From positions 6,175-70,174 of IMG/VR virus record IMGVR_UViG_3300016665_000666: a DNA stretch of 64,000 bases. One strand, written 5' to 3'. The notes beneath the pieces were generated by a model, which was not told the origin of the DNA, did no database searches, and saw only the letters and a program-made list of their open reading frames with translations. Shown one piece after another: positions 13,362 to 40,546 of this stretch. A program made the translations under genes and the position numbers. This DNA is from a virus. Taxonomy: Duplodnaviria; Caudoviricetes. Position 1 is the stretch's first letter. Every line of letters starts with the position of its first letter.

Positions 13362-15098
13362 ATGCCTAGAGTTTTAAAGAAAACAAGAATAAAATGGCTT
13401 CCGCCCAAGGTTCAACTTAGGAACAACGAGGCTTTGACAGGTTCGTTCCCAACTCATGCTCGGATCTCGTCAGATAACAGAACTGGTGTTTTTAACACTT
13501 TCTATGATGACAGCAACACCATTGTGTTTAAAAGCATAACATCCGGCTCTGATGGTTTGATGTTGCCCGTGGGTTTGAATGCGTCAAACCCTGCCCTTTT
13601 TTACTATGATCAAACAGGTTCTCTTGTAAGAAACCCTGAGTTGTCGTCAAGCATTAATGTTTCTGGAGTTATCAGAAAGGGAGTTGGTGATCAGTTTAGA
13701 ACATTCGCTTCGGGACAGACTGCAACGCCATTTTGCGACAACAACATACCTGCAAGCGATGGGTTGTCTGAAGGCAATGAGTTCTATGCAACTGGAAGTC
13801 GGCTTGCTGATGTCGGAGAGGGATTTAGTCAGCCGCTTTGGAGCAAGAGCAAAATAGAAATTGATCTAACGCCATCTGTAACACATTCCTTTTTCATAAA
13901 GAACTATTCCAGTGCCAGCAACAACTATCCAATGGCTTATTGGAACAATACCAGTAAGATTTGGGAAGGAATAGGAGCGGGTAAGGAGTTTGGTCTTTAT
14001 ACCGTGGGAAGCCAGTCATACTTTGAGGCTTTGTGTGAAGATCAGTGCATAGGTTTTGGAGCAACGATCAATCAAGGCGGAAGTGGTTTGTCAGATTATT
14101 CTGCTGGCGCAAAAATTAGCAACTTTGGTTTCCCATATCATGTGAAGTACCACGCAACCTCTTCTAATGAAATCGCGATGTCTAACTACATCTCTTCGCC
14201 ATTCCTTCTTGAAAAGATTGTTTTGGAATGGAGTGGGTCATTAGTGTTTAACAACACTTCGTATGGTAGTTTCACCAACTTCACAATCTGCACGTTTTTT
14301 ATCCTTAATCAACGTAAGCCGTATGGAATCAACGACCCCGCAGTTCAGCAGTTTGTTTATAGAACTGCTGACCAAAGAACTCACTATCTGGTTACAGGAG
14401 TACAGATCCCTGCTTCTTACAACGGCGGTTCTTCATACAACACCATTCGAGAACTTGTAACTTATGCACAAATTGTAGGATTCGCAGAGTTGGCTGATGA
14501 AACGCAGATAGAAAGAGTTAGTCGAGAGATGAACATTCCTTTTGGAGATCCTCGTTTAACTGATGCGTTTGGTGCTTGGTCTGGTAGATTTGTCATGTCT
14601 GGCACTGTAAAGAATCCGTTGCCCAACGAGGGTCTTACTGCAATGCAGATAGGGAATGACGACCTTGGTGTCGCGGCTATGATGCTAATCAATAAAAACA
14701 GCACCAGATCTGGGCTGTTTGCGGCTGGTGGTCGTGACTTTGTTGGAGCACTGGAAAGGGGGAAGGTTTTAGAAACCAGCAGTCAGCTTGAGACAGGAAC
14801 ACCTGCTTCTACCGATCCAACAGGGTCCGTTGTTGTTTTGGACAGGTACGCAAAAAACAATCCATATTTGCTTCAACCAACAGATAAGTTGGTTTTTGGT
14901 TGGCAGGTTCCTGTTGCTGATAGAATTAATTCCGCATTTGGGGTTCCGCAGTATGATGGCAGAGGCACAGAGATGACATTTGCCACTTCCCCATCCAAGA
15001 TAACCTTGTATGGCTCAATTGTTAGTGAAGGCAAAGAATTTCATGACACATTGAATCAATCATTGACTTCTGTGTCTATCCACGAGGTTATTGGCTAA
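13362..15098 (+). CDS. Putative virion protein
   Basis: ATG at 13362, 5 nt after the upstream stop; Ser/Gly-rich. Confidence 0.6.
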   Translation: MPRVLKKTRIKWLPPKVQLRNNEALTGSFPTHARISSDNRTGVFNTFYDDSNTIVFKSITSGSDGLMLPVGLNASNPALFYYDQTGSLVRNPELSSSINVSGVIRKGVGDQFRTFASGQTATPFCDNNIPASDGLSEGNEFYATGSRLADVGEGFSQPLWSKSKIEIDLTPSVTHSFFIKNYSSASNNYPMAYWNNTSKIWEGIGAGKEFGLYTVGSQSYFEALCEDQCIGFGATINQGGSGLSDYSAGAKISNFGFPYHVKYHATSSNEIAMSNYISSPFLLEKIVLEWSGSLVFNNTSYGSFTNFTICTFFILNQRKPYGINDPAVQQFVYRTADQRTHYLVTGVQIPASYNGGSSYNTIRELVTYAQIVGFAELADETQIERVSREMNIPFGDPRLTDAFGAWSGRFVMSGTVKNPLPNEGLTAMQIGNDDLGVAAMMLINKNSTRSGLFAAGGRDFVGALERGKVLETSSQLETGTPASTDPTGSVVVLDRYAKNNPYLLQPTDKLVFGWQVPVADRINSAFGVPQYDGRGTEMTFATSPSKITLYGSIVSEGKEFHDTLNQSLTSVSIHEVIG

Positions 15099-15101
15099 AT
15101 C

Positions 15102-16394
15102 ATGGCATATAACATTTTTGATCAATTTGAAACAGAGCCAAATGCTTTCTACAGCGGAAGTTATACCGATGCGATTTATCAAGGGAATCTTGGTGATCCG
15201 CAAGGAAGGTACAGGATTGTTTCTAAAACAAGCGGTTCTGTTGAAGCTCTCTATGCACAGTTTTTCTCGCAGTTTGCAGACAACAGTGGTTCTAACAGCA
15301 ATAGAAAGATAGGAACCGATCTAAGGTTTCGTTCATTTACCTCGGCAAATGAACTGTACCAGGATACAATTTTGCCAGATCTACACGAGTGCTTTTTGAT
15401 CAATGGCGGAATTCCTACCCTTTCTCTTATTGAAGCGGGTCTTTATCCGGTTATCTTGGATCGCGGAAGTGTGGGTAATCCTGTTGGTAAGTTGGTATTT
15501 TCCACTTATGGAACAACTGCGTCTTATGTCAGTTCTGGCACTGTGAATGTTGGCGATAGCACTTGGTTCGGCTCTTTTCCATTTCAGTACCGCTACAGAT
15601 CTGCAAAAAGAAATGTAATTCCTACTGTCTCCAAGTTCAATGTCTTGTTTCCGGCTTCAGAGTCTCAATTGTCATATAACAACATTGCCTATTATGGTGT
15701 TAACCAACAAACTTACAAATATGGATTGCTTGCAACCATTGAAGTGATCTTGCCTAGAATAAGTCCTGACTTTTACCCTACGGTTTCTGGTCCGGCTCAA
15801 ACAGAGCCATTGAGATATGCTCTGTTGGATGTGACCGGCGCTGTTTCTGTTGCGAGTGGGACTTTTGGAACAGGTGTAACTCTATATCCGCCTCCTGGTT
15901 CTGGTATTTTTGGTGTCGGTTTTGGAACTATCAGACCACCCGAAAGTCTTTTGATAAAAATGGCATATGGGTTTGGTGACTTTTGGAACAACGTTGCAAC
16001 GATGGAAACGGCTGTGACATCCAGTAAGTTGCAATGGGTGGCTGGTGTTTGCAACTACTACTATGCTTCCTCTGTGAACATCAGGGGTTGGCGATATGGC
16101 GTGATTAATGGTTTTCCTCAGTACACTTCGTGCATTTTCAGGAGTAGCCACTACGGACAGTTTAGAGACATGCTTGAGCAAAGAAAGCTTTCTAAGTTTT
16201 TCGACATCAACGGTCTAACCACTGATGGTAAAAACAATGCAAAGAAAGGCGTCACAAATGCTGCGGTTCAAGTTTCTTTTCTTAGTGGATCTAAGTCGTT
16301 TGTGACAGCAAGCTCGCCTTCATCTCTAAATCCCAATGACTCAGGCATTTATGACTTTGAATGCAAATCTGGAAGCCCTTGGCGCGATATTTGA
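15102..16394 (+). CDS. Putative virion protein
   Basis: 430 aa ORF, 3 nt after the previous stop. Confidence 0.6.
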   Translation: MAYNIFDQFETEPNAFYSGSYTDAIYQGNLGDPQGRYRIVSKTSGSVEALYAQFFSQFADNSGSNSNRKIGTDLRFRSFTSANELYQDTILPDLHECFLINGGIPTLSLIEAGLYPVILDRGSVGNPVGKLVFSTYGTTASYVSSGTVNVGDSTWFGSFPFQYRYRSAKRNVIPTVSKFNVLFPASESQLSYNNIAYYGVNQQTYKYGLLATIEVILPRISPDFYPTVSGPAQTEPLRYALLDVTGAVSVASGTFGTGVTLYPPPGSGIFGVGFGTIRPPESLLIKMAYGFGDFWNNVATMETAVTSSKLQWVAGVCNYYYASSVNIRGWRYGVINGFPQYTSCIFRSSHYGQFRDMLEQRKLSKFFDINGLTTDGKNNAKKGVTNAAVQVSFLSGSKSFVTASSPSSLNPNDSGIYDFECKSGSPWRDI

Positions 16395-16434
16395 TAGGTC
16401 AATATGAGTTTTTATACTCAGGCTACTTAGCAAC

Positions 16435-17454
16435 ATGGGTTTTTTAGATTCACGAACAAGAATACTTGATACGATAATAACTCTTCAAGGAAGAGGGCAG
16501 ATAGCTGCCGGAAAACTGAAAGCCGAGTTTTATAGCTTTACAGATCAAGGCGCTTTTTACACTCAAGATACTTCGGTAAGTGCCGCTTTAGATGGTACTC
16601 GCAGAATATATCTTGAGGCTTCAAGTCTCCCACAAGACATGATCACGTTTGAATCTGATGACTCAGGCAAACTAGTCAACTTTAGATCTTCAAACGTTTT
16701 GGTAAGAAACGGGCAGATTCTTGAAATCAGTTCGGCATTGGAAGGATCTGGTTCCGCGAGAACTTATTCCCCTGTACAGGATACCGTTTTTGCAAGCATG
16801 ACGGATCAGTTGTTAAGCAGTTCATTGGATGCTTTTACAAACAACTACATTCTTGGAAGTCCAGATGTGTTTGATGAAAACAGAGATTCTTTTCTTGTTG
16901 GGAATCCCAATCTCAGTTTTGCAATCAGCAACAACTCTCCTATCGCTTCTTCTGAGCAGCAAACAGCAAACATAGAACATGTTGATGGATTGTTTGTTGA
17001 CTCTAAACTAAGCCATCTTCCAAACTTCCAGTATCTTCCACCCATCAACAAGTTTAGACCTGGCGATTCCACTGTCTCATTGCTTGGCAACTATCCAAAC
17101 CTGAACCAAAGAAGGCAGTTAACGTTCGCAGATGTCGAAAGATATGTGGAAGATGCAAAAAACAAAGGCTACTCAACAGAGGTGGTGTTTGAAGAGACAT
17201 CAAAGAACAACAATCTTGTTTGTCAGATGTTTGAAATAGGAGATAATGAGATTGTCAAACTGGACATAATTGATTTTGGGCTGTTCAACTTGTCAGGACA
17301 AGACATCTCTCTTTCCGAAAAACTTAGACAGAACAAAGATCCTAGAAAAGCTCCAACTCTTAGCAAGCACGTTTTTTTTGTTGGAAAAATATTCACTGAC
17401 AGCAACAAGGTCAACAAGTTCATTAACCTTTTTACTATTATTTTCGAGGGATGA
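16435..17454 (+). CDS. Putative tail/baseplate protein with tail-collar-like N-terminus
   Basis: MGFLDSRTRILDTIITLQGRGQIA is paralogous to the N-terminus of 25750..26469. Confidence 0.55.
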   Translation: MGFLDSRTRILDTIITLQGRGQIAAGKLKAEFYSFTDQGAFYTQDTSVSAALDGTRRIYLEASSLPQDMITFESDDSGKLVNFRSSNVLVRNGQILEISSALEGSGSARTYSPVQDTVFASMTDQLLSSSLDAFTNNYILGSPDVFDENRDSFLVGNPNLSFAISNNSPIASSEQQTANIEHVDGLFVDSKLSHLPNFQYLPPINKFRPGDSTVSLLGNYPNLNQRRQLTFADVERYVEDAKNKGYSTEVVFEETSKNNNLVCQMFEIGDNEIVKLDIIDFGLFNLSGQDISLSEKLRQNKDPRKAPTLSKHVFFVGKIFTDSNKVNKFINLFTIIFEG

Positions 17455-17457
17455 TCA

Positions 17458-19956
17458 ATGAAAGTCAACATAAGTCGTCAGATTGGGATTCTAAGCCTCC
17501 CAGAAGAGCCAGCATTGTTGGACTTTTTAACAGAAGATGGAAGATACCAATACTTGGTAAGGTATAACGTTGATGTTGCCAAAGCGATTCGCAACAAAGC
17601 CATGGTGGTAAAAATCCATGCAACCAACAACCCACCAAACAATCGGGATGTTCCTGGTTTTGCGAGAATGAACACCAGCCAAATTGTAGAAAGTTTGTTG
17701 ACTCGTCAAACACAACATGTCGAGATCAATCGTGTAGCTGTTCAAAACTACATTGCATCAATCACTTCGGACATAACAGCACACATCCCAAATGATAAAG
17801 CTAAAACACTGGCAACTTCCACACTTGCTCGAACAAGAGAAAGTGTTGCCAAACCATTCTTGTATAAAACGGTTGCATTTAAACTAGCCAAAGCCAGTGA
17901 TCTAACACAGCAGAACATCTCACAACCAATTTTGCAAATCCCACTGTACCAACCAAACAGTAATGCTTTTGGCCCATCAAGCTCCCCACAAGAACACAGC
18001 TTTGCCTTACTGTTCCGTTTTGGCCGCGACCCAGCTTCGGTGGCAACCCCTACAAACCTTTATATCAGCACGGAAAAGGCCCATGCGGGCATTCTACAGT
18101 TGCCAAGCGGTGTTGCTCGTGCTGCAACGCTAGGAGCCGCTGACGGGCCTCCAGCGGCGTCCTTTGGGCTGCTCAGTTCTGTTGTGGGAAGCAAGAAGGG
18201 GCGACCAGCAGATCAAACTGGGTTGGCAAACAATGCTTATGTGCCAGTGTATGTTTCCGAGGAGACAAACATCAAAACCATCGAGGAGGTGATGCTTTTA
18301 AACATCTCTGATCTTGGTGATCAGTTCTATCTGATTTTTTCACTTCAGACTCTTGATGGTATCGAAGTAGAACGTGTTTCCTCTTTGGTACAACACTCAA
18401 AAGCAGAAGCGATTCTTAGCATTCCAGGTGCTCCAATGTTGGAAGCTTCTGAAGGAAACGGCTATAATCGTTTGTGCATAACGCAATTTGATCGCCGTGC
18501 GCAAGGCGTCTATCTCTATCGGAGAACGGTTGAGACACATACTGCCATGACCGATGCACCTTATGTGCAAATAGCAAAAATACCGTTGAGCAAAAAAGAT
18601 GTCTCAAAGTGGTTTACTGATCCAAGCCCCGGAATGAAGCCGGTTATCTACCGAGCGATTTGCTACAATCATCATGATGTAAAATCACACGAGTTTGCTT
18701 CGGCAGTAGTAATCCCAAAAAGAAAATATTTGGGAGTCAAAACAAGTGCTCATCAAAAACAACTTTTTTGCTCGGTAAAACCAACAATAGTTGGCAAAAC
18801 CATTCAAGTTGAAATTAACAACATTCCGCCTTTTGTTTTGGGGATGGAAGTTTTTCGTCGCGATCTAAGCAGACATCAAAACTTCAATGAGTTGACCAGG
18901 GTTGCAGAACCCCAGATCGTGTTTGGTCGAGCAAACATGCAAGGGCCATGGTATGTGACAGACACTTCTCCAGTAAACGGAAGAATCTATGAATACATGG
19001 TTAGGTTTTCTTATTTGAAGCAACCAGAATCTTGGTCTACTGCAACAGCTACGATTCAATTCAATCCAGTGCTGAACAACATTATTTCCACAACATCGAG
19101 TCCTATCAAAGCTGTTAACACAGGCACCGAACTAGATATTCAGTTCATTTTAAATTCCGTTATTCAGGATGGTCAGATAGATCAAATCCGAAAATCTTTG
19201 GAGCAACAAGGTCTTCTCGGCTTTTTTCAAGACGACATCACCCAGAACAGAGAGAAACTGCAAAACCTTATCGCTTATCATATTATCAGATCGGATTTGA
19301 CGACAGGTGAACATTCTGACATGGGCGTGTTTGTTGGAACAGAGTTTTCTGATCGTGCTGTTGGTAAAAACATGAATGTACCTGCCCCACAAGAAGGTCA
19401 TGTTTACACCTATACTATTAACACACACTTTAGATCTGCTCAAAGTTTGATACCAAGTTTTACAAAAACTGTGTCTTACCCTCTTAATCCTTCTCAAGAC
19501 TACGAGTACAAACCTTCAAAATGGCACCATCCAGTCACTTTAACCGAAGGTAGCATCGTTACAGATTCAAGCCTGAAGCGGAATCATGCAAACACCGATT
19601 TCACATTTGGGCTAGTTGGAGACATTCTTGAACTAAGAATTGATCTTTCGGATATCATGCCATCCATCCATGATGCAACAGCCAAAACATTTGGAAAAAG
19701 AAACATCCTGGTTGAATGGAGTTTGAAAGGTTCAAACAAGAAAATTGATCATTTCATAGTTACAAGGGAAGAGCTTGGCATGAAAACCGTTGTGGGCAAA
19801 AGCCACGCACTTTCAGATTCTAACTTGCAATTTCTGGATCGGTTCTATGATGACTCTAAAGACTCAGTGTTCACTTATTACATAACACCTGTGTTTTTTG
19901 ACTATACTCATGGAACAACAATTCAAACGCAGCAGGTAATAAGGAAAAAAGGATAA
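17458..19956 (+). CDS. Putative virion protein with FN3/Ig-like repeats
   Basis: Repeated Y-x-Y-x-V/I motifs: GRIYEYMVRF, GHVYTYTI, FTYYITPV. Confidence 0.55.
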   Translation: MKVNISRQIGILSLPEEPALLDFLTEDGRYQYLVRYNVDVAKAIRNKAMVVKIHATNNPPNNRDVPGFARMNTSQIVESLLTRQTQHVEINRVAVQNYIASITSDITAHIPNDKAKTLATSTLARTRESVAKPFLYKTVAFKLAKASDLTQQNISQPILQIPLYQPNSNAFGPSSSPQEHSFALLFRFGRDPASVATPTNLYISTEKAHAGILQLPSGVARAATLGAADGPPAASFGLLSSVVGSKKGRPADQTGLANNAYVPVYVSEETNIKTIEEVMLLNISDLGDQFYLIFSLQTLDGIEVERVSSLVQHSKAEAILSIPGAPMLEASEGNGYNRLCITQFDRRAQGVYLYRRTVETHTAMTDAPYVQIAKIPLSKKDVSKWFTDPSPGMKPVIYRAICYNHHDVKSHEFASAVVIPKRKYLGVKTSAHQKQLFCSVKPTIVGKTIQVEINNIPPFVLGMEVFRRDLSRHQNFNELTRVAEPQIVFGRANMQGPWYVTDTSPVNGRIYEYMVRFSYLKQPESWSTATATIQFNPVLNNIISTTSSPIKAVNTGTELDIQFILNSVIQDGQIDQIRKSLEQQGLLGFFQDDITQNREKLQNLIAYHIIRSDLTTGEHSDMGVFVGTEFSDRAVGKNMNVPAPQEGHVYTYTINTHFRSAQSLIPSFTKTVSYPLNPSQDYEYKPSKWHHPVTLTEGSIVTDSSLKRNHANTDFTFGLVGDILELRIDLSDIMPSIHDATAKTFGKRNILVEWSLKGSNKKIDHFIVTREELGMKTVVGKSHALSDSNLQFLDRFYDDSKDSVFTYYITPVFFDYTHGTTIQTQQVIRKKG

Positions 19957-27645: not shown

Positions 27646-30018
27646 ATGACCATTCAGCGCATAAACCCTGATGACATCGAAGTATTCACGCTAACAACCA
27701 ACCCGCCAAGAACGTTCAATTCTAGTTCTTCTGGTATTGTTAGCGGAACTCTTCATGTGTTTGCGCGCCGATCTCCGTTTGAAAAAGAAGTACATCCTCT
27801 TTCAATGTTTTCTGGTTCATTCATTGATCGAGACTTGGATGGCATAAGAACTTCAATTGTCAACAACACGAACACAAACAAGTACAACTTGTTGCAAACC
27901 TACATGAAGAACGTAAACTCACAGTCCGTTTCCTTAAGGAAACAACAGACTGTAGAAGTTATCAGGTTTGAGCCATCAGCAAGATTTAGCTCAAACAGCG
28001 TAAGAAAGAGTGTTGTTACAAACAACTTGATGCCTTATTACAGAACCGTTTTTCCTGAAGCGCACTTTGCTTTTACCAACTATAACTCTTTAAACTTCTT
28101 AACAAGCTCTGGGCTTCCTAGCGATACGGCTTTGATCTATGCCGATCCAGATCGTCAGTACGCCATTACAGGGGCTTTCTCTTTCGACTTCTGGATAAAC
28201 CCAAGATATAAAAATGACTACCCAGGAGCGGCATTTAAAGCCGGAACCATATTTCACCGTTCTTCTTCTTATGCCGTTTCTTTGATCTCTGGTTCTTCTA
28301 GAGATGTGAACGGGTATGTTGATGGTTTTAGACTTGTTTTGCAGCTAAGTCATAGTGCAGAAGTTCGGCCTTCTCTGGCTATGCCAGGAACAGGCTCTAA
28401 CTCTTTAGTGTTCATGTCTGATGACAACGCTCTAAGAAGAAACACTTGGCATCATGTTACAATCAGATGGGGCGAGGAGTCCATCAACCAGGGCTCAGGT
28501 TCCTTTTTAGTTGACGAGGTGGAAAAAGGAAGTTTCGTTCTCACGTCATCGCTTACAGATTATCATGATGAAAACTGTTTGATGATTGGAAACTTCTTTG
28601 AAGGCTCGAACAATCCTTTGTTTTTCACAAATGAAGTTGCCGAGCGAGATGGGTTGACGGAGTTGATTGCTGGAACTGGTACTGCTCCTACAAACTATGT
28701 CTTAAACCATGGCTTGAATGCCGAGGTTCATGAATTGAAACTTTACAGTCGATTCTTGAACAATGATGAAGTTGAGTTCTTGCAAACTCAGGGGCCTGTG
28801 TCTGGAACAAACTATCTGGATGCTGATTTGCAGTTTTATTTGCCGCCGTTCTACACAAAAGAATCCCCATATAGATCTTTTCATCTTGGATATGGCGGTT
28901 TGATTGCTACGCCATTTTTTGAAGTTGATGGAACATCGACATCTCCAGTTGATGTGGACGCTTCATTTGGTTGTGCGGGTCACTATCTTAACCTGGAAAA
29001 CTTTGTAAGAGACTTTGCCACTGGCACATATGCCAGACTCTTTCACTTAACAGCCTCAGTCATTACTGGAAGTGCAACTGTTCCAACAAGCTTCAATGAC
29101 TACCTATATGCTTCCGGTTCCAACTTGAAGCGTCACATGACTTTGTTGCCAAATGACAATGGCAACTTCTTCCCGAACTTCTCCTTCATGATTCCAAACA
29201 GGGATGATAACTCTGTTACTGGCATTCCTTACTCAACAACTCAAAGCTATAGAGCTCCTTACAAAGTGGATTCTACACAGTTTGTGAATGACAATGGTAG
29301 CATATCACCGGGCTTTGTTACGCTGCGCAACATCATCCCCATGTCTTTCTTCCAAAGCCAAGTCCAAGAAGAAAGCGGTTCATTAGTAGATGCTTTAAAC
29401 GGAGTCAGTCCTGAGAATCTTGACTATGAGCCAAGTTCACACGGAAGATACACAGTGCTGCAAAGAACAGGTGACAACTCTTCCAACCAAGTTGTGTTTT
29501 TTGACATCTCTAACCTCTACTATGGTATTCAGATTGAACCTGGAACCGTTGTTCTTAAAGACACCAACACAACTGGCTCGTTTGGCAAGATGGAACTTAC
29601 ACTGATTGATGACGGAGAGGGCAATCTCTATCGCTCTAATACATCTGGTTCTTCCCCGGATTGGGCAAGTGTTGGAAACGTGTTTTACAACGAAGGGATT
29701 GTTATGTTGAAACACCCATCCCTTTACTTCTTTGGCAAAGACAACTTTGAGCTCTCCTTCAAAGGAAGACAAAACACTCATATTCTAACCTATAACTTGT
29801 TCAAAAGATCTCTTACTGCCTTTTCATCCAGCAATCCAAACTATTTGCCAGTAAGCGCATCTACCGATGCCAATGACACTGATAAGAGATTTGCTTACAT
29901 CACAGGTATCAACCTCCATGATGACAACCTGAACATCATCACAAAAACCTCACTGGCTCAACCCATTGTTGCTAGGACAAGTGATAAGTTTCTTTTTAAG
30001 GTCAGAATGGATTTTTAG
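27646..30018 (+). CDS. LamG-domain virion protein
   Basis: FSFDFWINP, WHHVTIRW, VHELKLYSRFL; C-terminus paralogous to 26476..27621 (YITGINLHD...KVRMDF). Confidence 0.7.
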   Translation: MTIQRINPDDIEVFTLTTNPPRTFNSSSSGIVSGTLHVFARRSPFEKEVHPLSMFSGSFIDRDLDGIRTSIVNNTNTNKYNLLQTYMKNVNSQSVSLRKQQTVEVIRFEPSARFSSNSVRKSVVTNNLMPYYRTVFPEAHFAFTNYNSLNFLTSSGLPSDTALIYADPDRQYAITGAFSFDFWINPRYKNDYPGAAFKAGTIFHRSSSYAVSLISGSSRDVNGYVDGFRLVLQLSHSAEVRPSLAMPGTGSNSLVFMSDDNALRRNTWHHVTIRWGEESINQGSGSFLVDEVEKGSFVLTSSLTDYHDENCLMIGNFFEGSNNPLFFTNEVAERDGLTELIAGTGTAPTNYVLNHGLNAEVHELKLYSRFLNNDEVEFLQTQGPVSGTNYLDADLQFYLPPFYTKESPYRSFHLGYGGLIATPFFEVDGTSTSPVDVDASFGCAGHYLNLENFVRDFATGTYARLFHLTASVITGSATVPTSFNDYLYASGSNLKRHMTLLPNDNGNFFPNFSFMIPNRDDNSVTGIPYSTTQSYRAPYKVDSTQFVNDNGSISPGFVTLRNIIPMSFFQSQVQEESGSLVDALNGVSPENLDYEPSSHGRYTVLQRTGDNSSNQVVFFDISNLYYGIQIEPGTVVLKDTNTTGSFGKMELTLIDDGEGNLYRSNTSGSSPDWASVGNVFYNEGIVMLKHPSLYFFGKDNFELSFKGRQNTHILTYNLFKRSLTAFSSSNPNYLPVSASTDANDTDKRFAYITGINLHDDNLNIITKTSLAQPIVARTSDKFLFKVRMDF

Positions 30019-30038
30019 TCCGAATATTTAATTCTGCG

Positions 30039-31241
30039 ATGAATCAAATACAAAAACTCATACTTGAAGCAATTCAGGCAGAACTGAAAGAAGCAGCTTT
30101 GGGTGCTTCTGATGCTGAAGCTAGAGGTTTGGCATTAGCTCTGCTTGGTGACAACAATGAAAAACAAGCAATCCTATATGATCCTGCGATGATTCGTAAA
30201 AGCTTCAGGATTGAAAAAGGCTATCCAATCATTACTGGTTTTAGAAGTCCAATTATTGGAACGATTAAGATCAAACAAAATTGTGGTGCATGGATGGTTT
30301 CCAGTGTTGCTGCCGAACGGGGGTTTGGTCCTTTCATGTATGACATTGCTTTTTCTCTTGTTGGGCCGCAAGGACTTATGCCCGACAGATCATTTGTTTC
30401 ACCACATTCAAGAAAGATTTGGAAATTCATTACTGATCGAAGAAGTAATGAATTCACAACAAAACCAGCACCAACAAACTGCAAGTTTCTTGATAAAAAC
30501 AAACTTGGAAAAGACCCTTATCTTGATTTTATCTACACGTTGAAAACGCCAATTCAAGGATTGGATGACTTAAAGAACAGGAGCAATCAATTCATTGAAG
30601 AGCTAACAGCCGAGATAAAATACGATGCAAAAAAGCTACTTGTCATGATGTCAAGTGGCATGTTTTCTCGCAAAATGACTTCACTAGATGAAGCTGCTAT
30701 TCCATTTCAACATGCAACAAAAAACAGTTTCGCCATACACACCACCAAAGAAGGTGGCGTTTTGACAGTGATTATGTATGAAACAAGTTCTACGGAGCCA
30801 GTAGTTCTGGGAATCATTGACATGGTAAAGATACCATCGTGTTCTACATGGAGGATTGTTACTTCTGCGGCCATAAAAGGTTATGGCCCGTTGATGTATG
30901 ACATTGCCTTTTCAATTGCAGGCGATTCGGGTTTGATGTCGGATCGCACAAGAGTAAGTGACGATGCTAAAAAAATATGGAATTTTTTAGCAAACAAGAG
31001 AACCGATGAGTTTGAAAAGATCCCGGTCAAACCAAACTGTAGGTTTAAAGGTGTTGACTCGGCTCACCCATTGAATCATAAGTTCATTTTAAAAAATAGA
31101 TTGAACTATGGTGAGTTGGAAGCAAACCATCAAAAAAACATGGCCCAGATGTCACCAAAAGACAAAAAGAAGTTTTTGGGGAGCTTGGAAGAGAAAGCGA
31201 ATGACTTCTTTAATGAGAAATATTTCGGAGTTAAACAGTAG
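30039..31241 (+). CDS. Tandem two-domain GNAT-like protein, probable internal head protein
   Basis: Two repeats: SVAAERGFGPFMYDIAF..GLMPDR..VSPHSRKIW and SAAIKGYGPLMYDIAF..GLMSDR..VSDDAKKIW; acidic leader ending LKE. Confidence 0.55.
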   Translation: MNQIQKLILEAIQAELKEAALGASDAEARGLALALLGDNNEKQAILYDPAMIRKSFRIEKGYPIITGFRSPIIGTIKIKQNCGAWMVSSVAAERGFGPFMYDIAFSLVGPQGLMPDRSFVSPHSRKIWKFITDRRSNEFTTKPAPTNCKFLDKNKLGKDPYLDFIYTLKTPIQGLDDLKNRSNQFIEELTAEIKYDAKKLLVMMSSGMFSRKMTSLDEAAIPFQHATKNSFAIHTTKEGGVLTVIMYETSSTEPVVLGIIDMVKIPSCSTWRIVTSAAIKGYGPLMYDIAFSIAGDSGLMSDRTRVSDDAKKIWNFLANKRTDEFEKIPVKPNCRFKGVDSAHPLNHKFILKNRLNYGELEANHQKNMAQMSPKDKKKFLGSLEEKANDFFNEKYFGVKQ

Positions 31242-31584
31242 GTTGTGAGTTTCTGATGGAGTTTTCAATGTCTTCAACAAGTTCTTCAACAGTTATTGGA
31301 GACTCACCTTGTTTCAACAAAAGACGGTTTTCTGCTTTTACTACCTGTTCCTCTGTCACTCTCTTGCCTTTGTAACTCAAACTCAACACTTCAACTTCTG
31401 AATCCGTTGGAGGTTCAAAACGACTCCCAGGTGTAGAGTTGATAAACCTAAACTTAACTTCCAGAGGCCCAACATTCAAATGAGTATAGTTGAACGTTTG
31501 ATCATCCGATCCCATTTGGGATAATTGATTGATCACAGCTTCTCGGATCATAGAAACAAGTTGTCTTTTTGTTATTACGCTCAT
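31231..31584 (-). CDS. Hypothetical protein with I-x-E leader
   Basis: MSVITKRQLVSMIREAV; TAATTA 6 nt upstream of the ATG. Confidence 0.65.
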   Translation of the reverse strand: MSVITKRQLVSMIREAVINQLSQMGSDDQTFNYTHLNVGPLEVKFRFINSTPGSRFEPPTDSEVEVLSLSYKGKRVTEEQVVKAENRLLLKQGESPITVEELVEDIENSIRNSQPTV

Positions 31585-31768
31585 AACTCTTAATTATCCC
31601 TTTCAATCACTAACCATTACTTTCCAAACCTATTTATGTTCCGATAGTTCTTAAACGGCATGGCGTTTAAACGCCGTTCTAGGCTGGTTGAAGACAGCAC
31701 CAAGGGCTTTATGGCTTGTTGCCGGAACAGCGGTTAAAACGAACGCTGGGTGGCTTGGAGGGGGTTCA

Positions 31769-32482
31769 GTGAACAATAGCAAGACAGACGCAACACTTCA
31801 TGAATTCATCAATGAGATTGTGGAAGAGATCGTTAACGAAAAAGCATTTCTTCCTTCAGAGGCAAGCTCTCAAGGACTTGCACTAGCCAAGTTTTCTTTG
31901 AATGAATCTGTATATTTTGTGCTTTATCGCCCAGGTGAGTTGTTGGAGTTTGCACAAAACCTGGAGCGATTCAATCCTGGGTTTTTAAATCCCAATCAGT
32001 TAGAAAAAGCAATCCAGCAACTAGTCAACGAAACAACAAATCCGGTTATTGGCCTTATCAGGATTTACAAAGATTCTTGTGCTTGGATTGTTCAGAACAG
32101 CGCAGCAGAGAAGGGTTATGGTCCAATGTTGTATGACATTGCACTTTCTTTTGCAGGTCCACATGGCTTGACATCTGATAGAGCGGAAGGCGTTTCTCCA
32201 TCTGCTAGAAACATATGGAAACACTACGCAACCCAAAGAAAAGCAGAAATGCGAATCTATCCTTTCATGGAAGACGACGAATGCTCGTCGTTTTCTAACG
32301 ATCAAGACAGTTGGTTTTTGGATGCAAAATACACGCTTAAAAACCCAAGAGCTGTTAACTGGGGAAGTTTGTTAAACACTTCCAACGATACGCTATCTCA
32401 ACTTCAAAGTCCAGTTCCAGGCGATGTTCTGTTGCGAAGGCTTGGAAGTATTTACTTTAGCAAAAAATACACAAAAGGATAG
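31769..32482 (+). CDS. GNAT-like protein, paralog of 30039..31241
   Basis: GTG start with GGAGG 7 nt upstream; SAAEKGYGPMLYDIAL..GLTSDR..VSPSARNIW. Confidence 0.55.
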   Translation: MNNSKTDATLHEFINEIVEEIVNEKAFLPSEASSQGLALAKFSLNESVYFVLYRPGELLEFAQNLERFNPGFLNPNQLEKAIQQLVNETTNPVIGLIRIYKDSCAWIVQNSAAEKGYGPMLYDIALSFAGPHGLTSDRAEGVSPSARNIWKHYATQRKAEMRIYPFMEDDECSSFSNDQDSWFLDAKYTLKNPRAVNWGSLLNTSNDTLSQLQSPVPGDVLLRRLGSIYFSKKYTKG

Positions 32483-32485
32483 CAA

Positions 32486-33214
32486 ATGGAGATTGAAAGG
32501 TTCATTAAAGAAGTTTTGCTGAAAGAGCAAAAAAGACTCAAAGAAGTGGCTGTTAGCGCAAAACAAGCTTCGCATCTCGCACTTTATGTTCAAAGAGACT
32601 CCAGAGATATGCGCTGTATTCTTTATGATACAGAAATTCTAATCGCACTCTACAAAGCTTACACGAAGCATTATTCCATGAATGACATGAGAAATATTCA
32701 AAGCACTCAACAACATGATTCAATACCTAATCCTGTTTTCGGAATGATTAGGATTGCGATAAACGCCGAATACAACGCTTGGGTTGTTCAGAACAGTGCG
32801 GCAGAAAAAGGCTATGGTCCATTGATGTATGACATTGCTTTTAGCTTTGCTGGCGAAAAAGGCATGACACCAGACAGAGATTCTGTAAGGCCAGCCGCTA
32901 AGAATGTTTGGAAACACATTCTTCTAAAAAGGCCAAACGAGTTTGAAATAACGCCGTTAAAAAATACTTGGAATGATCAAGGTGTTGAACATCATTCTTA
33001 CAATGATGAAAATCAAAAATACCTTGATAGCAAATATGTCTGGAAACAATCCAACCGAAAAGATTTTGGTCCTATGTTCCAAAAAAACAGACAAACGTTA
33101 AGTTATCTCAAAACGCTCGATGTAAAACACAAGATAGACCCTGAAGAATTTCTTAAAATTCTCTCCCGCATTTTCTTTAGAGAGAAATACTCCCCCTCCT
33201 CCTTCTACTGGTAG
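32486..33214 (+). CDS. GNAT-like protein, paralog of 30039..31241
   Basis: SAAEKGYGPLMYDIAF..GMTPDRDSVRPAAKNVW; leader MEIERFIKEVLLKEQKRLKE. Confidence 0.55.
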   Translation: MEIERFIKEVLLKEQKRLKEVAVSAKQASHLALYVQRDSRDMRCILYDTEILIALYKAYTKHYSMNDMRNIQSTQQHDSIPNPVFGMIRIAINAEYNAWVVQNSAAEKGYGPLMYDIAFSFAGEKGMTPDRDSVRPAAKNVWKHILLKRPNEFEITPLKNTWNDQGVEHHSYNDENQKYLDSKYVWKQSNRKDFGPMFQKNRQTLSYLKTLDVKHKIDPEEFLKILSRIFFREKYSPSSFYW

Positions 33215-33258
33215 TGTTCCACTTATCTTTTAATGACTGTTAAAGCCATATTAGCTGT

Positions 33259-33732
33259 ATGGCGATAAAGAGACGAAGAAGAAAAAGAAAACACTACAAA
33301 ACCGGAACGCATAAAAGTCCAAAGTGTAAAACACCAATCAAGTATCGTTCTGGTTGGGAATTGGTTGTTGCCAAATATCTTGATTCTGATCCGTTGGTGG
33401 AAGAATATGGCTATGAGTGCGTGGCAATAAATTATCTTTCAAATGTCAAAACCGGCAAGTACAGAACATACTACCCAGACTTCTTAATAACCTACAAAGA
33501 CGGAACCAGGAAGCTTGCTGAGGTAAAGCGTGTTGATAAGTTGAATGATCCAATGGTTATGAAGAAAGCGAAAGCAGCAGAAGAATGGTGCAAAAGTCAA
33601 AAGCAAAAAACGGTGTACGAGTTTTGGACAAACGTGATGATCGAAGCCTATCGGAAGATAAACGAAACCAGAACTCAACCAATGAAACCGTTGAAAAAAA
33701 CACGAAGCCGAGTCAAGCAGTCTGGACAATAG
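33259..33732 (+). CDS. T4 gp4-like head completion nuclease (TnsA N-terminal/PD-(D/E)xK fold)
   Basis: YRSGWE....YLD.DP.V..Y.YE...I.Y...YYPDF......AEVK. Confidence 0.8.
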   Translation: MAIKRRRRKRKHYKTGTHKSPKCKTPIKYRSGWELVVAKYLDSDPLVEEYGYECVAINYLSNVKTGKYRTYYPDFLITYKDGTRKLAEVKRVDKLNDPMVMKKAKAAEEWCKSQKQKTVYEFWTNVMIEAYRKINETRTQPMKPLKKTRSRVKQSGQ

Positions 33733-33752
33733 ATTTTGGTCATAAACACCCA

Positions 33753-34376
33753 ATGTTCTTTGGTCATCACCAACCAAGAGAACATTGGAAGGTTGATGTT
33801 GGTTTAGACATTTCTACATCTGTGATTGGAGTTTGCTTTCTTAATCGTGAATCATCGGAACTAATCTGCAAGTTTCACATTGATATCTCTTCAGAGAAGT
33901 TTGAAACCATGTGGCAAAAGGTTGATTATGCCATGGAGAAACTTGCTGGAAAGATTCGATGGTATCAATCTCATTCTAATGCTGGCCCGCCTCCTTGTGT
34001 TTTTCAACGATTTTTTGTTGAAGCAAACGCAAAAGCATATAAGTCTGGTTTTACGTCTGCTGATACTCTGATGACTCTTGCTAAGATGAATGGGATCATT
34101 TCCTATGAGTGTTACCGAATGTTTCAGTTGCCAATTATTGACATCAACGTCACATCTGCACGCAAGATGATTGGCTATAAAGACAAAAAAGCAGTTAAAA
34201 AACCAGTAAAAGAAAAGGTCAGAGAGTTTGTTTTGCAAACGTATCCAGAACTTAAAGTGGAAACAAGAGAAGTAACCAAAGGAAAAGACAAAGGAAAGAG
34301 AGTTCCTGTTTCTGGTGCTGCTGATGAGATAGATGCTTTTGTTATTTGTCGGGGCGGTCAGTTGTTAAATCCATGA
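33753..34376 (+). CDS. RuvC-like Holliday junction resolvase
   Basis: VGLDISTSVIG (D1), FFVEAN (E2), DEIDAFVI (D3/D4); start uncertain. Confidence 0.75.
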   Translation: MFFGHHQPREHWKVDVGLDISTSVIGVCFLNRESSELICKFHIDISSEKFETMWQKVDYAMEKLAGKIRWYQSHSNAGPPPCVFQRFFVEANAKAYKSGFTSADTLMTLAKMNGIISYECYRMFQLPIIDINVTSARKMIGYKDKKAVKKPVKEKVREFVLQTYPELKVETREVTKGKDKGKRVPVSGAADEIDAFVICRGGQLLNP

Positions 34377-35445: not shown

Positions 35446-38400
35446 ATGAAAATAGCTCACATTTCAGATATTCATTGGCGCGGTCTTACTCGCCATGCTG
35501 AATACACAAAAGCATTCAACGATTTGTTTTCTGCGTTGCGCAAGATCAACCCAGACATGATTTTTTTGGGTGGCGACTACTTTCACACCAAGACATCTGG
35601 AATCTCACCAGAAGTGATTGATCGTCTTGCCTGGATGTTTAAATCTTTTGCTGATATTGCACACACATTTGCCATTCTAGGAAATCACGATGGCAACTTG
35701 GCAAACGAAAGTCGTGAAGATTCTATTTCTCCCATCATCAATGCGATAAACAGCCCAAGGATACATCTTTACAAGAAAAGCGGTGTTTACAACATATCGC
35801 CATTCGTTTTCCCTACCAATTCAGAAGAGCTTGCTGCAAACCTTTGCGTCTTCTCTTGTTTTGACAAAGAAGGTTGGGAGCGTGTTGCTCCTACTCCTGG
35901 CGTTTTGAACATAGCAGCTTTTCATGGCTCTGTGGGCGGCACAAGGATGGATAATGGCTGGATCATGCCAGATTCAAAAGCAGAGGTCATGCTTTCCATG
36001 TTTGATGGATATGACTTTGTGTTTCTGGGTGACATCCACAAAAGACAGTTCCTTGCTCAAAGACCAGATAAAAGTGGAACACTTAAACCTTGGATCGGGT
36101 ATCCGGGCTCCACAATCCAGCAAAACTTTGGCGAAGAACAACTCAAAGGATTCTTGGTTTGGGACATTAAAAACAGAAAAGATTGGGATGTTGAGTTTGT
36201 TGAAGTAGAAAACTCACAACCCTTCATCACCTTTGCATGGAACAATGACCCAGAAACCTCTTTAAAGGCCCTAGAAGCCCGCGTAGCCCTTCGTGACGGG
36301 GCAAGGTACACAGTGACTTCTCCACGCCCTCTAACAGCCTTCCAGCAGCGCCAAATGGTGCATGAGCTAAAGGTTCTTCGAGGCGCCCAAGAAGTTTTGT
36401 TTTCACCTGACAAGAATTTGAAACACGACTTGATCAGCCATGAAGATGTGGTGGTTAAAAAAGCTAGTTTGCGTACAAACCCTGAGATCTTGCAGCGGTT
36501 TTATCGAACTTTTCTAGAGTTGAACACCAAGAAGTATCAACTCACAGAAGCGCAGATGGAAGATGGTTTCAAGATCATCGAAGGTCTTTTGGGGCACCTT
36601 GATGCCACAGAGTCAGAAACCACAAGAGATGTTTATTGGTCGATTAAAGAGTTTGAATTCGACAATCTTTTTCGATATGGAGAAAACAACAGATTGAACT
36701 TTGACACTCTTGAAGGAGTTGTTGGAGTTTTTGGTAAGAACAAGATTGGTAAAAGTTCCTTGGTTGGCGCTTTGATGTACGTTCTGTTTAACAGCTCTGA
36801 TCGTGACGGGATCTCAAAGAACGGTCAGATTATGAACCAGAACAAGAAATCTTGTCGTGCCAAAATTGTAATAACAGTTGATGACATTGATTACAGAATC
36901 GAACGTTCTTCACAAAGAGTTCTTGCTGGCAAAAAAAGCAAAAAATCTTCCGAAGAAGAATATGACGGAGATAAGACAGAAACCAAACTTACTTTCACCA
37001 GATTGAACAAAGATGGCACAGAAACAAGTTTGAATGGAACAACAAGAGAAGAAACTGATAAAGCAATCAGAAAGCTTCTGGGGAACTCACAAGACTTCTT
37101 GATGACCACAGTAGCCACGCAAAGAGGAATGGAAAGTTTTATTGATGAAGGCTCTTCATCGCGCAAAACAATTCTTAACCGCTTTCTAGATCTTGACGTT
37201 TTTGAGAAACTTCATGCTTTTACCAAAGAGCACATTCTCAAACTAAACAACAAACTCTCTTCTTATGCTGTGGGTTGGGAGAAAACAGTTTTGGAGTTGT
37301 CCAACTCCATCCCTTTAAAAGAGAAAGAAGCTGAGGAGCTACAGAGTCTTATCTCGTCTCAAAGAGACGAGATGGCAAACTTAAGATTTTGGTTTGCAAA
37401 GAATGACTCTTCCGATGCGATTGAAGCATCCAACAACCTCACGAGAATACAACAAAAACTTCAATCGCTTCAGCGACAGCTAACAACTTCTGAACAAGAA
37501 CAAGCAACTATGAACAAAAAAATAGATGCTGTTCATGCCAAACTCATTGAGGTTTCCAATGAGTACAACAAGATTGATTACGCCAAGCTGAAGCAAGACT
37601 TTCAGAGTATGAAAGAGATTGAAGAGCGACTTAATGCAATAAATGCAGATTTTCGTGAACAAGAGAAAAGCATTGCATTGCAAGAAAGAAATGTCAAGAA
37701 GTTAACTCTGGTTCCTTGTGGAGATCAGTTCCCAGAGTGCCTTTATATCAAAGATGCTCACCAGGATAGAAAAACCATTGATGTAAACAAAAAGAAGCTC
37801 TCTGAGCTAGCTGTTACTTTGGAAAAAGCAACTGCTGATCTGAGGCTCTACCAAGAAATGCAGTTATCTCAAAAGATGTCACTACGACATGGACTAGAAC
37901 AGCAACTTAAAGACTTGGTAAAAGAGAAAACAAGCTATGAAGCTCAGTTGTCTTTGATGAATAAATCACATGGTGATATCAACAAGTGGCTTTCTGGTGC
38001 TCGTCAAGAAGAGGCAAGACTGCTCCAGTTGGCTGGAGCGAAAGATGATATCAGAGTTTTTGAAGAGAAAAAGAAAGAGCAAACTGAATTGCAGAATCTC
38101 TTGTTTGCCAATGAAAGAAGAAGAAGTGACCTTCTTGTTGAAATAGGAAGAGACAAAGCTAAATTGGAACAGTTGACCGAAAACAGCTATGAAGTTGGGT
38201 TGATCTCAGCCAAGATTCAAGTGTTTGAAACGCTGTTGGCAGCGTTCCACAAAAATGGAATTCCCGCAATGATTCTAAAAACACAGCTTCCAATGATCAA
38301 TGCGGAACTTTCCAGGCTTCTTGCAGGTTTGGTGGACTTCAACATCACGTTTGAAACAGAACCGGGTTCAAATTCAATGGATGTTTACATTGAAGATGGA

Positions 38401-38697
38401 CACTCAAGAAGGATTCTTGAGTTGGGTTCTGGAATGGAAAAGATGCTTGCCTCTATTGCGATCCGAGTCGCACTTTGCAACCTTTCCAGTCTTCCAAAGT
38501 CAAACATCATCATTCTTGACGAAGGTTTTAATGCACTAGATGATGATCATGTTGGAAAGTGTCTGGAGTTGATTCAAGCACTCAAGAACCACTTCAAAAC
38601 AGTCATGGTCATCTCTCACATGCAACGTGTCAAAGAAGCCTCTGATGTCATCATTGAGATCACTTCAACAAACCATGAGTCAAGAGTGGAAGCATGA
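35446..38697 (+). CDS. Fused SbcD/Mre11 nuclease - SbcC/Rad50 ATPase (gp47-gp46-like)
   Basis: DIH, GGD, GNHD, FHG and GDIH phosphoesterase motifs, then Walker A GKNKIGKS, coiled coil, signature LGSGME, Walker B IIILDEGF and ISH, all in one ORF. Confidence 0.92.
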   Translation: MKIAHISDIHWRGLTRHAEYTKAFNDLFSALRKINPDMIFLGGDYFHTKTSGISPEVIDRLAWMFKSFADIAHTFAILGNHDGNLANESREDSISPIINAINSPRIHLYKKSGVYNISPFVFPTNSEELAANLCVFSCFDKEGWERVAPTPGVLNIAAFHGSVGGTRMDNGWIMPDSKAEVMLSMFDGYDFVFLGDIHKRQFLAQRPDKSGTLKPWIGYPGSTIQQNFGEEQLKGFLVWDIKNRKDWDVEFVEVENSQPFITFAWNNDPETSLKALEARVALRDGARYTVTSPRPLTAFQQRQMVHELKVLRGAQEVLFSPDKNLKHDLISHEDVVVKKASLRTNPEILQRFYRTFLELNTKKYQLTEAQMEDGFKIIEGLLGHLDATESETTRDVYWSIKEFEFDNLFRYGENNRLNFDTLEGVVGVFGKNKIGKSSLVGALMYVLFNSSDRDGISKNGQIMNQNKKSCRAKIVITVDDIDYRIERSSQRVLAGKKSKKSSEEEYDGDKTETKLTFTRLNKDGTETSLNGTTREETDKAIRKLLGNSQDFLMTTVATQRGMESFIDEGSSSRKTILNRFLDLDVFEKLHAFTKEHILKLNNKLSSYAVGWEKTVLELSNSIPLKEKEAEELQSLISSQRDEMANLRFWFAKNDSSDAIEASNNLTRIQQKLQSLQRQLTTSEQEQATMNKKIDAVHAKLIEVSNEYNKIDYAKLKQDFQSMKEIEERLNAINADFREQEKSIALQERNVKKLTLVPCGDQFPECLYIKDAHQDRKTIDVNKKKLSELAVTLEKATADLRLYQEMQLSQKMSLRHGLEQQLKDLVKEKTSYEAQLSLMNKSHGDINKWLSGARQEEARLLQLAGAKDDIRVFEEKKKEQTELQNLLFANERRRSDLLVEIGRDKAKLEQLTENSYEVGLISAKIQVFETLLAAFHKNGIPAMILKTQLPMINAELSRLLAGLVDFNITFETEPGSNSMDVYIEDGHSRRILELGSGMEKMLASIAIRVALCNLSSLPKSNIIILDEGFNALDDDHVGKCLELIQALKNHFKTVMVISHMQRVKEASDVIIEITSTNHESRVEA

Positions 38698-39624: not shown

Positions 39625-40218
39625 TCAATCACGACCCAACACCATTTGTACTGGTATTGTTTTGACCTTTAGTTTTACAACAGCCTCATACCGATGATGA
39701 CCATCAAGAATAGAACCACTTTGATCAACTACAATTGGGAGAAACCAAGCATTTGGTTCCAATAGTTTTTGGGCTATGTCTTTAACTTTTTTCTGACCTT
39801 CTTTTGTTTGAGAATGACTTTCGGTTGGAGTGACATCAGAGATCGGCATCAATCTAGGTGGGCTTAGGTGCTCACCATCAAATATATTAATCCAACCATC
39901 TGTTGCCAGTTCCTCAGCAGAGTTTGTTTTAATCCGAATGTTCTTCCAATCAAACTTCGAAGTTTTTGGTTTCATGCCAATTTTATAGTTTTTTCCTTGT
40001 TTGTAGGTTGGTATGTTGTTGGCAAACCATCTACTTTCTTGTTCTGTGCCACCCCACCCTTGTTGCCTTGCACGTTCTTTTTCTCGATAGACAAACTCTG
40101 AAGCTTCTTCAGGTGTTTTAAACTCTTTGTAGCTATAATTCTCAGACCACCACTTTACATCTTCCAAGCTTATAGCTTTTTCGAGCGTTTCTAGAATGAA
40201 TCGTTTGAGATTGTCCAT
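39625..40218 (-). CDS. ParB/Srx-like domain protein
   Basis: PIVVDQSGSILDGHHRYEA...IPV; leader MDNLKRFILETLE. Confidence 0.8.
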   Translation of the reverse strand: MDNLKRFILETLEKAISLEDVKWWSENYSYKEFKTPEEASEFVYREKERARQQGWGGTEQESRWFANNIPTYKQGKNYKIGMKPKTSKFDWKNIRIKTNSAEELATDGWINIFDGEHLSPPRLMPISDVTPTESHSQTKEGQKKVKDIAQKLLEPNAWFLPIVVDQSGSILDGHHRYEAVVKLKVKTIPVQMVLGRD

Positions 40219-40246
40219 TTTGTTTATAGTTTCTTTAACTACTGCC

Positions 40247-40546
40247 ATGAATGATTTTTCACCATGGTCTAAGTTTGATTCCTATAGGGAAATGAAAGTG
40301 GTTTCTGATGGCAAAGTTTTGGTTATCAGACCAAGTGACACAACAACAGTTGTGCCTTTGTTTTGCCCGCTTTGTGAGTTCTCTATGCGGAATTCAAATG
40401 ATTCAATTGCATATAGAAAGAAACAGTGCTGTGACAAATGCCTGCTTTTTTGTAGAGGCAACAAAGAAGACTTTACTCCTGAGCAATGGGAAGAGTATTT
40501 GCAAGAACGGCAATTAATGACAAGGCCACTAATTAACTTAAAGTAA
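40247..40546 (+). CDS. Small zinc-finger protein
   Basis: CPLC...CCDKC. Confidence 0.6.
   Translation: MNDFSPWSKFDSYREMKVVSDGKVLVIRPSDTTTVVPLFCPLCEFSMRNSNDSIAYRKKQCCDKCLLFCRGNKEDFTPEQWEEYLQERQLMTRPLINLK

Follow-up and report, generated by a model that had tools for sequence, protein, structure and literature searches.

Bacteriophage T4 gp21 cleaves packaged proteins after (L/I)-x-E, and tags shared by otherwise unrelated proteins are a hallmark of targeting sequences. The capsid-targeting sequence (CTS) of T4 consists of 10 N-terminal residues that gp21 removes; positions 4 and 7 matter for targeting and positions 8 and 10 for processing, and the CTS has been proposed to let T4-like phages load varied proteins (PMC9026906). 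Large phages load many head proteins, enzymes included, with N-terminal propeptides of ~20 residues or more that are trimmed after Glu (PMC10052503, PMC9026906). Here, we analyzed three genes, A, B and C, on a 64,000-nucleotide stretch of viral DNA (the window, positions 6,175 to 70,174 of the IMG/VR record IMGVR_UViG_3300016665_000666), which a first-pass annotation had read as encoding four GNAT-like domains with protease-type leaders, i.e. acetyltransferases that are packaged in the head, matured by its protease and ejected with the DNA. We found that the four domains are homologous, belong to a large viral family and have a predicted GNAT-like fold, and that each follows a site of the (L/I/V)-x-Glu type; the earlier interpretation as a whole is partly supported, and capsid-loaded cargo is the reading that we favor, tentatively.

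Genes A, B and C and their family

Gene A (30039..31241, + strand; 400 amino acids) encodes two GNAT-like domains in tandem, A_N (residues ~19-214) and A_C (~219-400), and genes B (31769..32482, +; probably 237 amino acids) and C (32486..33214, +; 242 amino acids) encode one each. With A cut at residue 215, pairwise BLASTP of the four domains gave E-values of 6e-27 for A_N/A_C, 3e-35 for B/C and 3e-31, 5e-30, 4e-20 and 4e-24 for the other pairs, at 30-41% identity. Three genes with four homologous domains were thus correctly recognized in the first-pass annotation (E 4e-20 to 3e-35), and the core consensus that it quoted is found in all four: (S/V)AA(E/I)(K/R)G(Y/F)GP..YDIA(F/L)S, followed by DR..V(S/R)..A..(I/V)W. 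The core-motif segments are AAERGFGPFMYDIAFS, AAIKGYGPLMYDIAFS, AAEKGYGPMLYDIALS and AAEKGYGPLMYDIAFS, the first, in A_N, at 30309..30356 (+) and the second, in A_C, at 30867..30914 (+), with core-motif matches at 32102-32149 (+) in B and 32798-32845 (+) in C.

An acidic site stands ahead of each domain: LKE18/AA (A_N), LDE218/AA (A_C), VNE/KA (B) and LKE20/VA (C). The leader of A, MNQIQKLILEAIQAELKE (30039..30092, +), ends in L16-K-E18; those of B, MNNSKTDATLHEFINEIVEEIVNE, and of C, MEIERFIKEVLLKEQKRLKE, end in V22-N-E24 and L18-K-E20, respectively; and the internal site of A, L216-D-E218 (30684..30692, +), lies between its two domains. These are the sites first quoted, the only correction being the start of B. 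Its open reading frame (ORF) is open from TTG 31688 and contains an in-frame GTG at 31769; because a ribosome-binding site, GGAGGGGG at 31757-31764, lies 5 nt ahead of this GTG and the resulting leader aligns with those of other family members, B probably starts there. This leader-plus-domain layout of the three predicted proteins is far beyond chance.

Neither Pfam nor PHROGs gave a match for A, B, C or the 117-amino-acid neighbor encoded between A and B, and a word-indexed search found only 12 relatives. A full profile search at E <= 1e-3 retrieved 2,674 cluster representatives (clustering at 50% identity), of which 1,459 reached E <= 1e-10. Members are mostly 200-250 amino acids long, with a minority of tandems or longer fusions. 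The closest Atlas clusters are of viral origin, as are the 15 loci recovered, which come from a viral-contig collection; no relative turned up when 185,579 prokaryote genomes were scanned with a pattern, and neither tblastn with C, P0150 and P0024 nor megablast with the locus found a match in 50,697 GenBank phage records. The family is therefore large, unannotated, so far confined to viral sequences and devoid of a cultured representative. As its 2,674 clusters are absent from Pfam and PHROGs, even a fold assignment is a useful annotation.

We then compared the leaders of 138 diverse single-domain representatives. Glu is present in 136/138, preceded at -2 by L, I or V in 128 and followed at +2 by Ala in 131, and the residue at +1 varies (A 59, K 23, E 12, V 9). 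Ahead of the site lies an amphipathic helix with the consensus L..F(I/L)E(Q/E)V(I/V)..EL, and the leader has a median length of 17 residues, mostly 12-23. The LxE/xA junction of tandem A recurs in the tandem homologues P0014, P0016, P0029 and P0105. Besides its three family domains, the polyprotein-like P0030 (1,367 amino acids) contains an HNH motif and a pair of canonical Pfam GNAT domains; it has LxE.AKG-type sites at 365, 602, 795 and 1000, each just ahead of a domain, with LxE.A ahead of each family domain as well as a canonical Pfam GNAT domain. The leader-plus-site is thus a real, family-wide feature, resembling T4-type propeptides.

In syntenic relatives (L001-L006), flanking genes are 72-93% identical to those of our record, versus 33-68% for the family genes, and the locus holds one gene, two, or three genes with four domains. 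By these comparisons the locus is variable and fast-evolving: the family diverges faster than its neighbors and has expanded there from one to four domains. In this phage lineage it sits between tail/baseplate genes and a gp4-like head-completion gene; elsewhere, family genes lie between neck and sheath genes, with homing endonucleases flanking (L011), or near replication genes (L007, L014).

Predicted fold and probable enzymatic activity

AlphaFold2 gave confident models for C (predicted local distance difference test, pLDDT, 86.6; predicted template modeling score, pTM, 0.81) and A (pLDDT 88.5, pTM 0.58), the low pTM of A relative to its pLDDT indicating that two rigid domains are flexibly joined. 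The predicted models contain a mixed alpha/beta GNAT core with strands and helices in the order found in GNATs, followed by a family-specific C-terminal extension of two helices (~50 residues). GNAT motif A, (Q/R)-x-x-G-x-(G/A), lies between strand beta4 and helix alpha3 and binds the pyrophosphate of coenzyme A (CoA). In C, strand 98-106 and helix 111-125 flank the loop A106-E-K-G109-Y-G111-P, and the motif-A-like segments of A are placed in the same way (strand 84-92 and helix 97-111 in A_N; strand 270-278 and helix 283-297 in A_C). G111 is invariant in the family and G109 nearly so; the first motif-A-like position is Ala, not Q/R. The site falls in the only low-confidence block before each domain: residues 11-20 have a pLDDT of 57-58 in C and A (57 in A, where the leader helix spans 3-16), and residues 211-220 of A have 63, with flanking blocks at 89-92. 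The short helix right after the site (A: 23-28 / 223-228) is modeled confidently.

Structure prediction and a Foldseek search had been proposed with the first-pass annotation as a check on the GNAT fold. The models are confident and the weak Foldseek list is mostly GNAT, but nothing in the Protein Data Bank (PDB) matched at E <= 0.001. Matches in BFVD are mostly GNAT/NAT_SF too, the nearest named Atlas clusters are PF00583, and the GNAT structural alignments begin directly after the conserved Glu. Pfam searches with 141 members taken singly gave nothing consistent (one weak Acetyltransf_10 match, E 0.05), and family profiles run against PDB sequences found no GNAT, chance matches only; by sequence-profile criteria, the predicted proteins fall outside every Pfam GNAT family. 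The GNAT-like domain originally proposed thus stands in its predicted fold, and fails to appear in a sequence-profile match. Judging from the models, the fold is very probably GNAT-like, the domains are likely to be active acyltransferases, and A, B, C and their family are probably acyl-CoA dependent.

A very improbable alternative is that the GNAT-like domains are inert, being abundant internal head or DNA-associated proteins like the T4 internal proteins, which would bind a host factor without acylating it. The Ala at the first motif position does not argue for such a loss, since the motif-A contact is made by backbone amides and Q/R is not required. Moreover, at a mean column identity of 18%, the G-x-G-P loop, Y115, D116, D130, R131 and W142 are invariant or nearly so, a pattern typically seen where a protein binds a ligand or carries out catalysis.

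The models are less informative about what would be acylated. TacT and AtaT are among the structural neighbors and a CCA-enzyme gene lies nearby in one relative (G005, see below), as would fit enzymes that act on the translation apparatus, by whatever route, either acetylating aminoacyl-tRNA as TacT and AtaT do or modifying tRNA-linked substrates, and that shut off or reprogram host translation. However, the scores of acetyltransferases that act on proteins, polyamines and aminoglycosides lie within 1 Z unit, so that the fold search points to no substrate, the adjacency to a tRNA enzyme is seen at one locus only, and there is no antitoxin-like co-directional partner gene. We consider this target distinctly unlikely.

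Two possible readings: head cargo or enzymes of the producing cell

The reading that we favor, with slightly less than even confidence, is that A, B and C are capsid-targeted, protease-released, acyltransferase-like cargo. The 12-23-residue amphipathic helix and the flexible linker ending in (L/I/V)-x-Glu would together act as a capsid-targeting propeptide of the T4 type. The proteins, synthesized late, would enter the prohead core and be cleaved after Glu by a head protease of the gp21 family, the same cut splitting tandem A into two enzymes; the freed enzymes would enter the next host with the DNA and acylate host or defense targets. The general idea is not new, loading of varied proteins through the CTS being already proposed in the T4 literature (PMC9026906).

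We compared the leaders with the propeptides in the T4 record, which read MKTYQEFIAE/ARVGAGKLE/AAV (IPII), MKTYQEFIAE/ASV (IPIII), ...ITE/ATL (IPI), MAKINELLRE/S (gp24) and ...FLTE/AEI (gp23). The leader of A, MNQIQKLILE/AIQAELKE/AAL, is in the register of the T4 tag: positions 4 and 7 are hydrophobic, position 8 is Ile and position 10 is Glu. The leaders of C and B match it with shifts. Note that this likeness is a short-motif resemblance, not homology.

Relatives provide circumstantial evidence that favors head cargo. Distant members in G013 and G014 (E ~1e-14 for the core-motif match), with the N-terminus MKLSEIFDELFE/ARV, are encoded directly downstream of a gp23-like capsid gene, behind a terminator-like hairpin. 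The module runs from the portal through a gp21-like protease (PF03420, E 1e-25) and the scaffold to the capsid gene, whose product retains L-T-E where it aligns with the cleavage site of T4 gp23. In G005 (13802-18119, equal to L013 8511-12849 in the opposite orientation), a family member, MRQLIIEMVHSALLE/VA, belongs to a four-gene cassette with three unrelated enzymes: a fusion of NTP_transf_2 and a Pfam GNAT (leader MNIFIKKLLRE/G), a 361-amino-acid protein (MKHLIKKLLRE/S) and a CCA-adding tRNA nucleotidyltransferase (MKETIRQILRE/G). The N-terminus ..I(K/R)(K/Q)(L/I)LRE/ occurs at only 3 of the 643 candidate starts of the 52.9-kb G005 record, namely those of the three cassette enzymes, and closely resembles the T4 gp24 propeptide.

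A further arrangement was seen in L012 (9180-9850), where a tandem duplication covers the 3' end of the gp23-like capsid gene, its terminator hairpin and the AT-rich box that follows; two successive small genes, a family member and one starting MKEMIKKLLRE/N, thus each lie behind the same signal.

The conserved site can also be read without packaging. A, B and C could be GNAT-fold enzymes that are active in the producing cell and never packaged; their substrates might, for instance, be proteins of the phage or the host, tRNA or small molecules, with the helix being oligomerization-related or regulatory, E-x-A a structural cap and the likeness to T4 coincidental. We regard this as rather unlikely. 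The nearly invariant Ala and the very short leaders of some members accord with a structural role just as well as with packaging. Ala is seldom replaced at +2, in contrast to the variable +1, and at the T4 sites checked Ala or Ser stands right after Glu with no conserved +2, so that T4-type specificity does not explain it; the helix after the site is confidently modeled as part of the domain, and the conservation suggests that E-x-A may be part of the fold. The Glu is kept in members with N-termini of 3-6 residues, and 15/136 members have only 3-11 residues before it (MQE, MLFE), which is too short for a targeting tag unless their gene starts are miscalled. Unlike T4 IPII and IPIII, whose tags are identical, A, B and C have leaders that resemble each other no more closely than their domains do. 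Nor is the leader significantly shared with other genes of the window: a leader hidden Markov model (HMM) and leader regular expressions gave no significant match outside the family over all ORFs of the record, and two non-family leader-like N-termini are seen in the window versus 0.9 expected, roughly the background level (1.4% of candidate starts).

The genomic evidence for a head route also has gaps at this locus. With T4 as the positive control for the gp21/gp23 search, gp21 (PF03420), gp23 (PF07068), capsid, scaffold and head protease were not found on the 70-kb record, which is 19% complete, and a gp21-family protease and a T4-type head core were likewise missing from five larger related records, these and our own being fragments, 14-29% complete. 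No cultured phage with the family occurs among the GenBank phage records searched, hence no virion proteome; no sequence profile, from Pfam or from PDB sequences, ties the family to GNATs; and the family genes beside replication genes in L007 and L014 fit enzymes of the producing cell.

On the other side, a structural role for the leader helix in such unpackaged enzymes accords poorly with its variability. The helix is highly variable in length, is replaced by unrelated N-terminal regions in some fusions and is missing from the second domains of tandems, and is thus dispensable for the fold. The site falls in the lowest-confidence segment of the models, and some relatives are neighbors of a T4-type head module or part of the shared-leader cassette.

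Extending the head-cargo reading to the whole family is more doubtful, though possible: the >2,600 clusters of this divergent GNAT-fold family would then be a widespread class of acyltransferase effectors that large T4-related phages load into the capsid, release by proteolysis and inject, an acylation counterpart of Alt, with paralogue arrays and cut-apart tandems diversifying against host targets or defenses. Were this true, T4-related phages would inject a set of enzymes reaching far past Alt and the small internal proteins, acylation would be added as a first-minute host-takeover or anti-defense chemistry, and a simple rule, leader plus (L/I)-x-Glu, would serve to find cargo in uncultured phages.

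Genomic setting and comparison with known systems

The window belongs to a 70,174-base record with a CheckV completeness of 19%, so that most of this much larger phage lies outside the record. Large structural genes lie upstream of gene A, among them a gp6-type baseplate wedge gene (5685-7529, HMM match) and, directly ahead of A, a structural-type gene of 790 amino acids for a ConA/laminin-G protein (27646-30018). Downstream follow genes for a gp4-like head-completion/TnsA-like nuclease, a RuvC-like protein, a primase, a fused SbcCD-like protein and the large terminase. By BLASTP, matches to T4 are limited to gp4, gp17 and one more ORF of the record, and the phage is therefore at most distantly T4-related; a strict 'T4-like' label, for which these matches and the gp6-type baseplate HMM match were considered, was rejected.

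The TnsA-like protein (33259-33732, +; 157 amino acids) matches T4 gp4 (34% identity over 64 amino acids) and phrog_218, and a longer paralogue (38%, 112 amino acids) is encoded just upstream of the family gene in L004/L005 (8972-9964). The RuvC-like ORF (33585-34376) overlaps the 157-amino-acid ORF by 148 nt as listed, its true start being probably further downstream. The SbcCD-like protein (35446-38697, +) is a single chain of 1,083 amino acids that fuses a Mre11/SbcD-like nuclease to a Rad50/SbcC-like ATPase; it is closest, at 23-26% identity, to proteins of Microcystis phage Mel-JY01 and of huge metagenomic phages, and full-length relatives of the fusion occur in Mel-JY01 and in 484-735-kb metagenomic phages. 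The acetyltransferase-like family is absent, by its profile, from Mel-JY01 and from the huge phages LR756508 and LR756501, the nearest records as judged by their SbcCD-like gene.

The 117-amino-acid gene between A and B (31231..31584, - strand) is conserved, with orthologues in L001 and L004-L006 at 33-60% identity. Its leader-like N-terminus, MSVITKRQLVSMIRE/AV, is kept in these orthologues as M..(I/T)TK(K/R)QL..(L/M)I(R/H)E/(A/T)V and resembles a T4-type leader, the L004 copy starting MKTT versus MKTY in the T4 internal proteins; the protein is possibly a further cargo, its membership in the system being uncertain. It is the only small neighbor, and as it lies on the opposite strand and there is no small co-directional partner gene, a toxin-antitoxin reading of the locus was rejected. 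The divergent intergenic region between this gene and B (31585-31768) contains a 25-nt palindromic hairpin, AACGGCATGGCGTTTAAACGCCGTT, at ~31654-31678.

A second leader-like N-terminus, MDNLKRFILE/T, whose register is exactly that of the T4 tag, was seen at 39625-40248 (-; likely start 40218, coding region 39628-40218) in a gene of ~197 amino acids with no Pfam match; it is conserved in L001 as ..LKRFLLE/V. The C-terminal DGHHR(Y/F)EAV of this protein is reminiscent of ParB/sulfiredoxin-type domains.

Regarding expression signals, the T4 late promoter TATAAATA has zero occurrences in the window, a scan of 29500-33800 for sigma-70 promoters and terminators gave fewer sites than in shuffled sequence, and no sigma-70-like promoter stood above the shuffled background in 31585-31768. 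An (A/T)TATTTAA-type box lies 5-15 nt ahead of the ATG of gene A (30020-30038) and also upstream of 5685, 9098, 38757 and 59703; the genes that carry it, A and several structural genes, have no obvious Shine-Dalgarno sequence. This box may be a late-gene signal.

Compared with described GNATs (NatD 4ua3, Elp3 5l7j, Tip60 2ou2, AAC(2')-Ia 5us1), the family is alike in its predicted fold and in a G-x-G loop at the place of motif A, and differs in the lack of a detectable profile relation, in the Ala that comes first in motif A, and in its C-terminal helices, N-terminal leader and own invariant residues. TacT/AtaT (6g96, 7ak7, 6gtp) and the phage anti-CRISPR AcrVA5 (6iuf) differ from it, with no sequence similarity, and the locus has no toxin-antitoxin layout.

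The ejection proteins of phiKZ and SPN3US resemble the proposed cargo as head-loaded sets with propeptides trimmed after Glu. Their protein families are unrelated, and their site is (S/A/G)-x-Glu, with a small P3 residue versus L/I/V here; their cleavages were measured by mass spectrometry, whereas the sites of A, B and C are predicted ones.

The closest counterparts are T4 IPI, IPII, IPIII and Alt. No sequence homology links them to A, B and C, the cargo here being GNAT-like rather than an ADP-ribosyltransferase or a small basic protein; no gp21 gene was found on this fragment; and the leaders are longer (median 17 residues) and non-identical between paralogues, with a nearly invariant Ala at +2. 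Nevertheless, both sets have short N-terminal leaders that end in (L/I)-x-Glu followed by small residues, both are encoded by variable multi-copy genes in plastic regions between core genes, and relatives of A, B and C adjoin a head module of the gp21/gp22/gp23 type.

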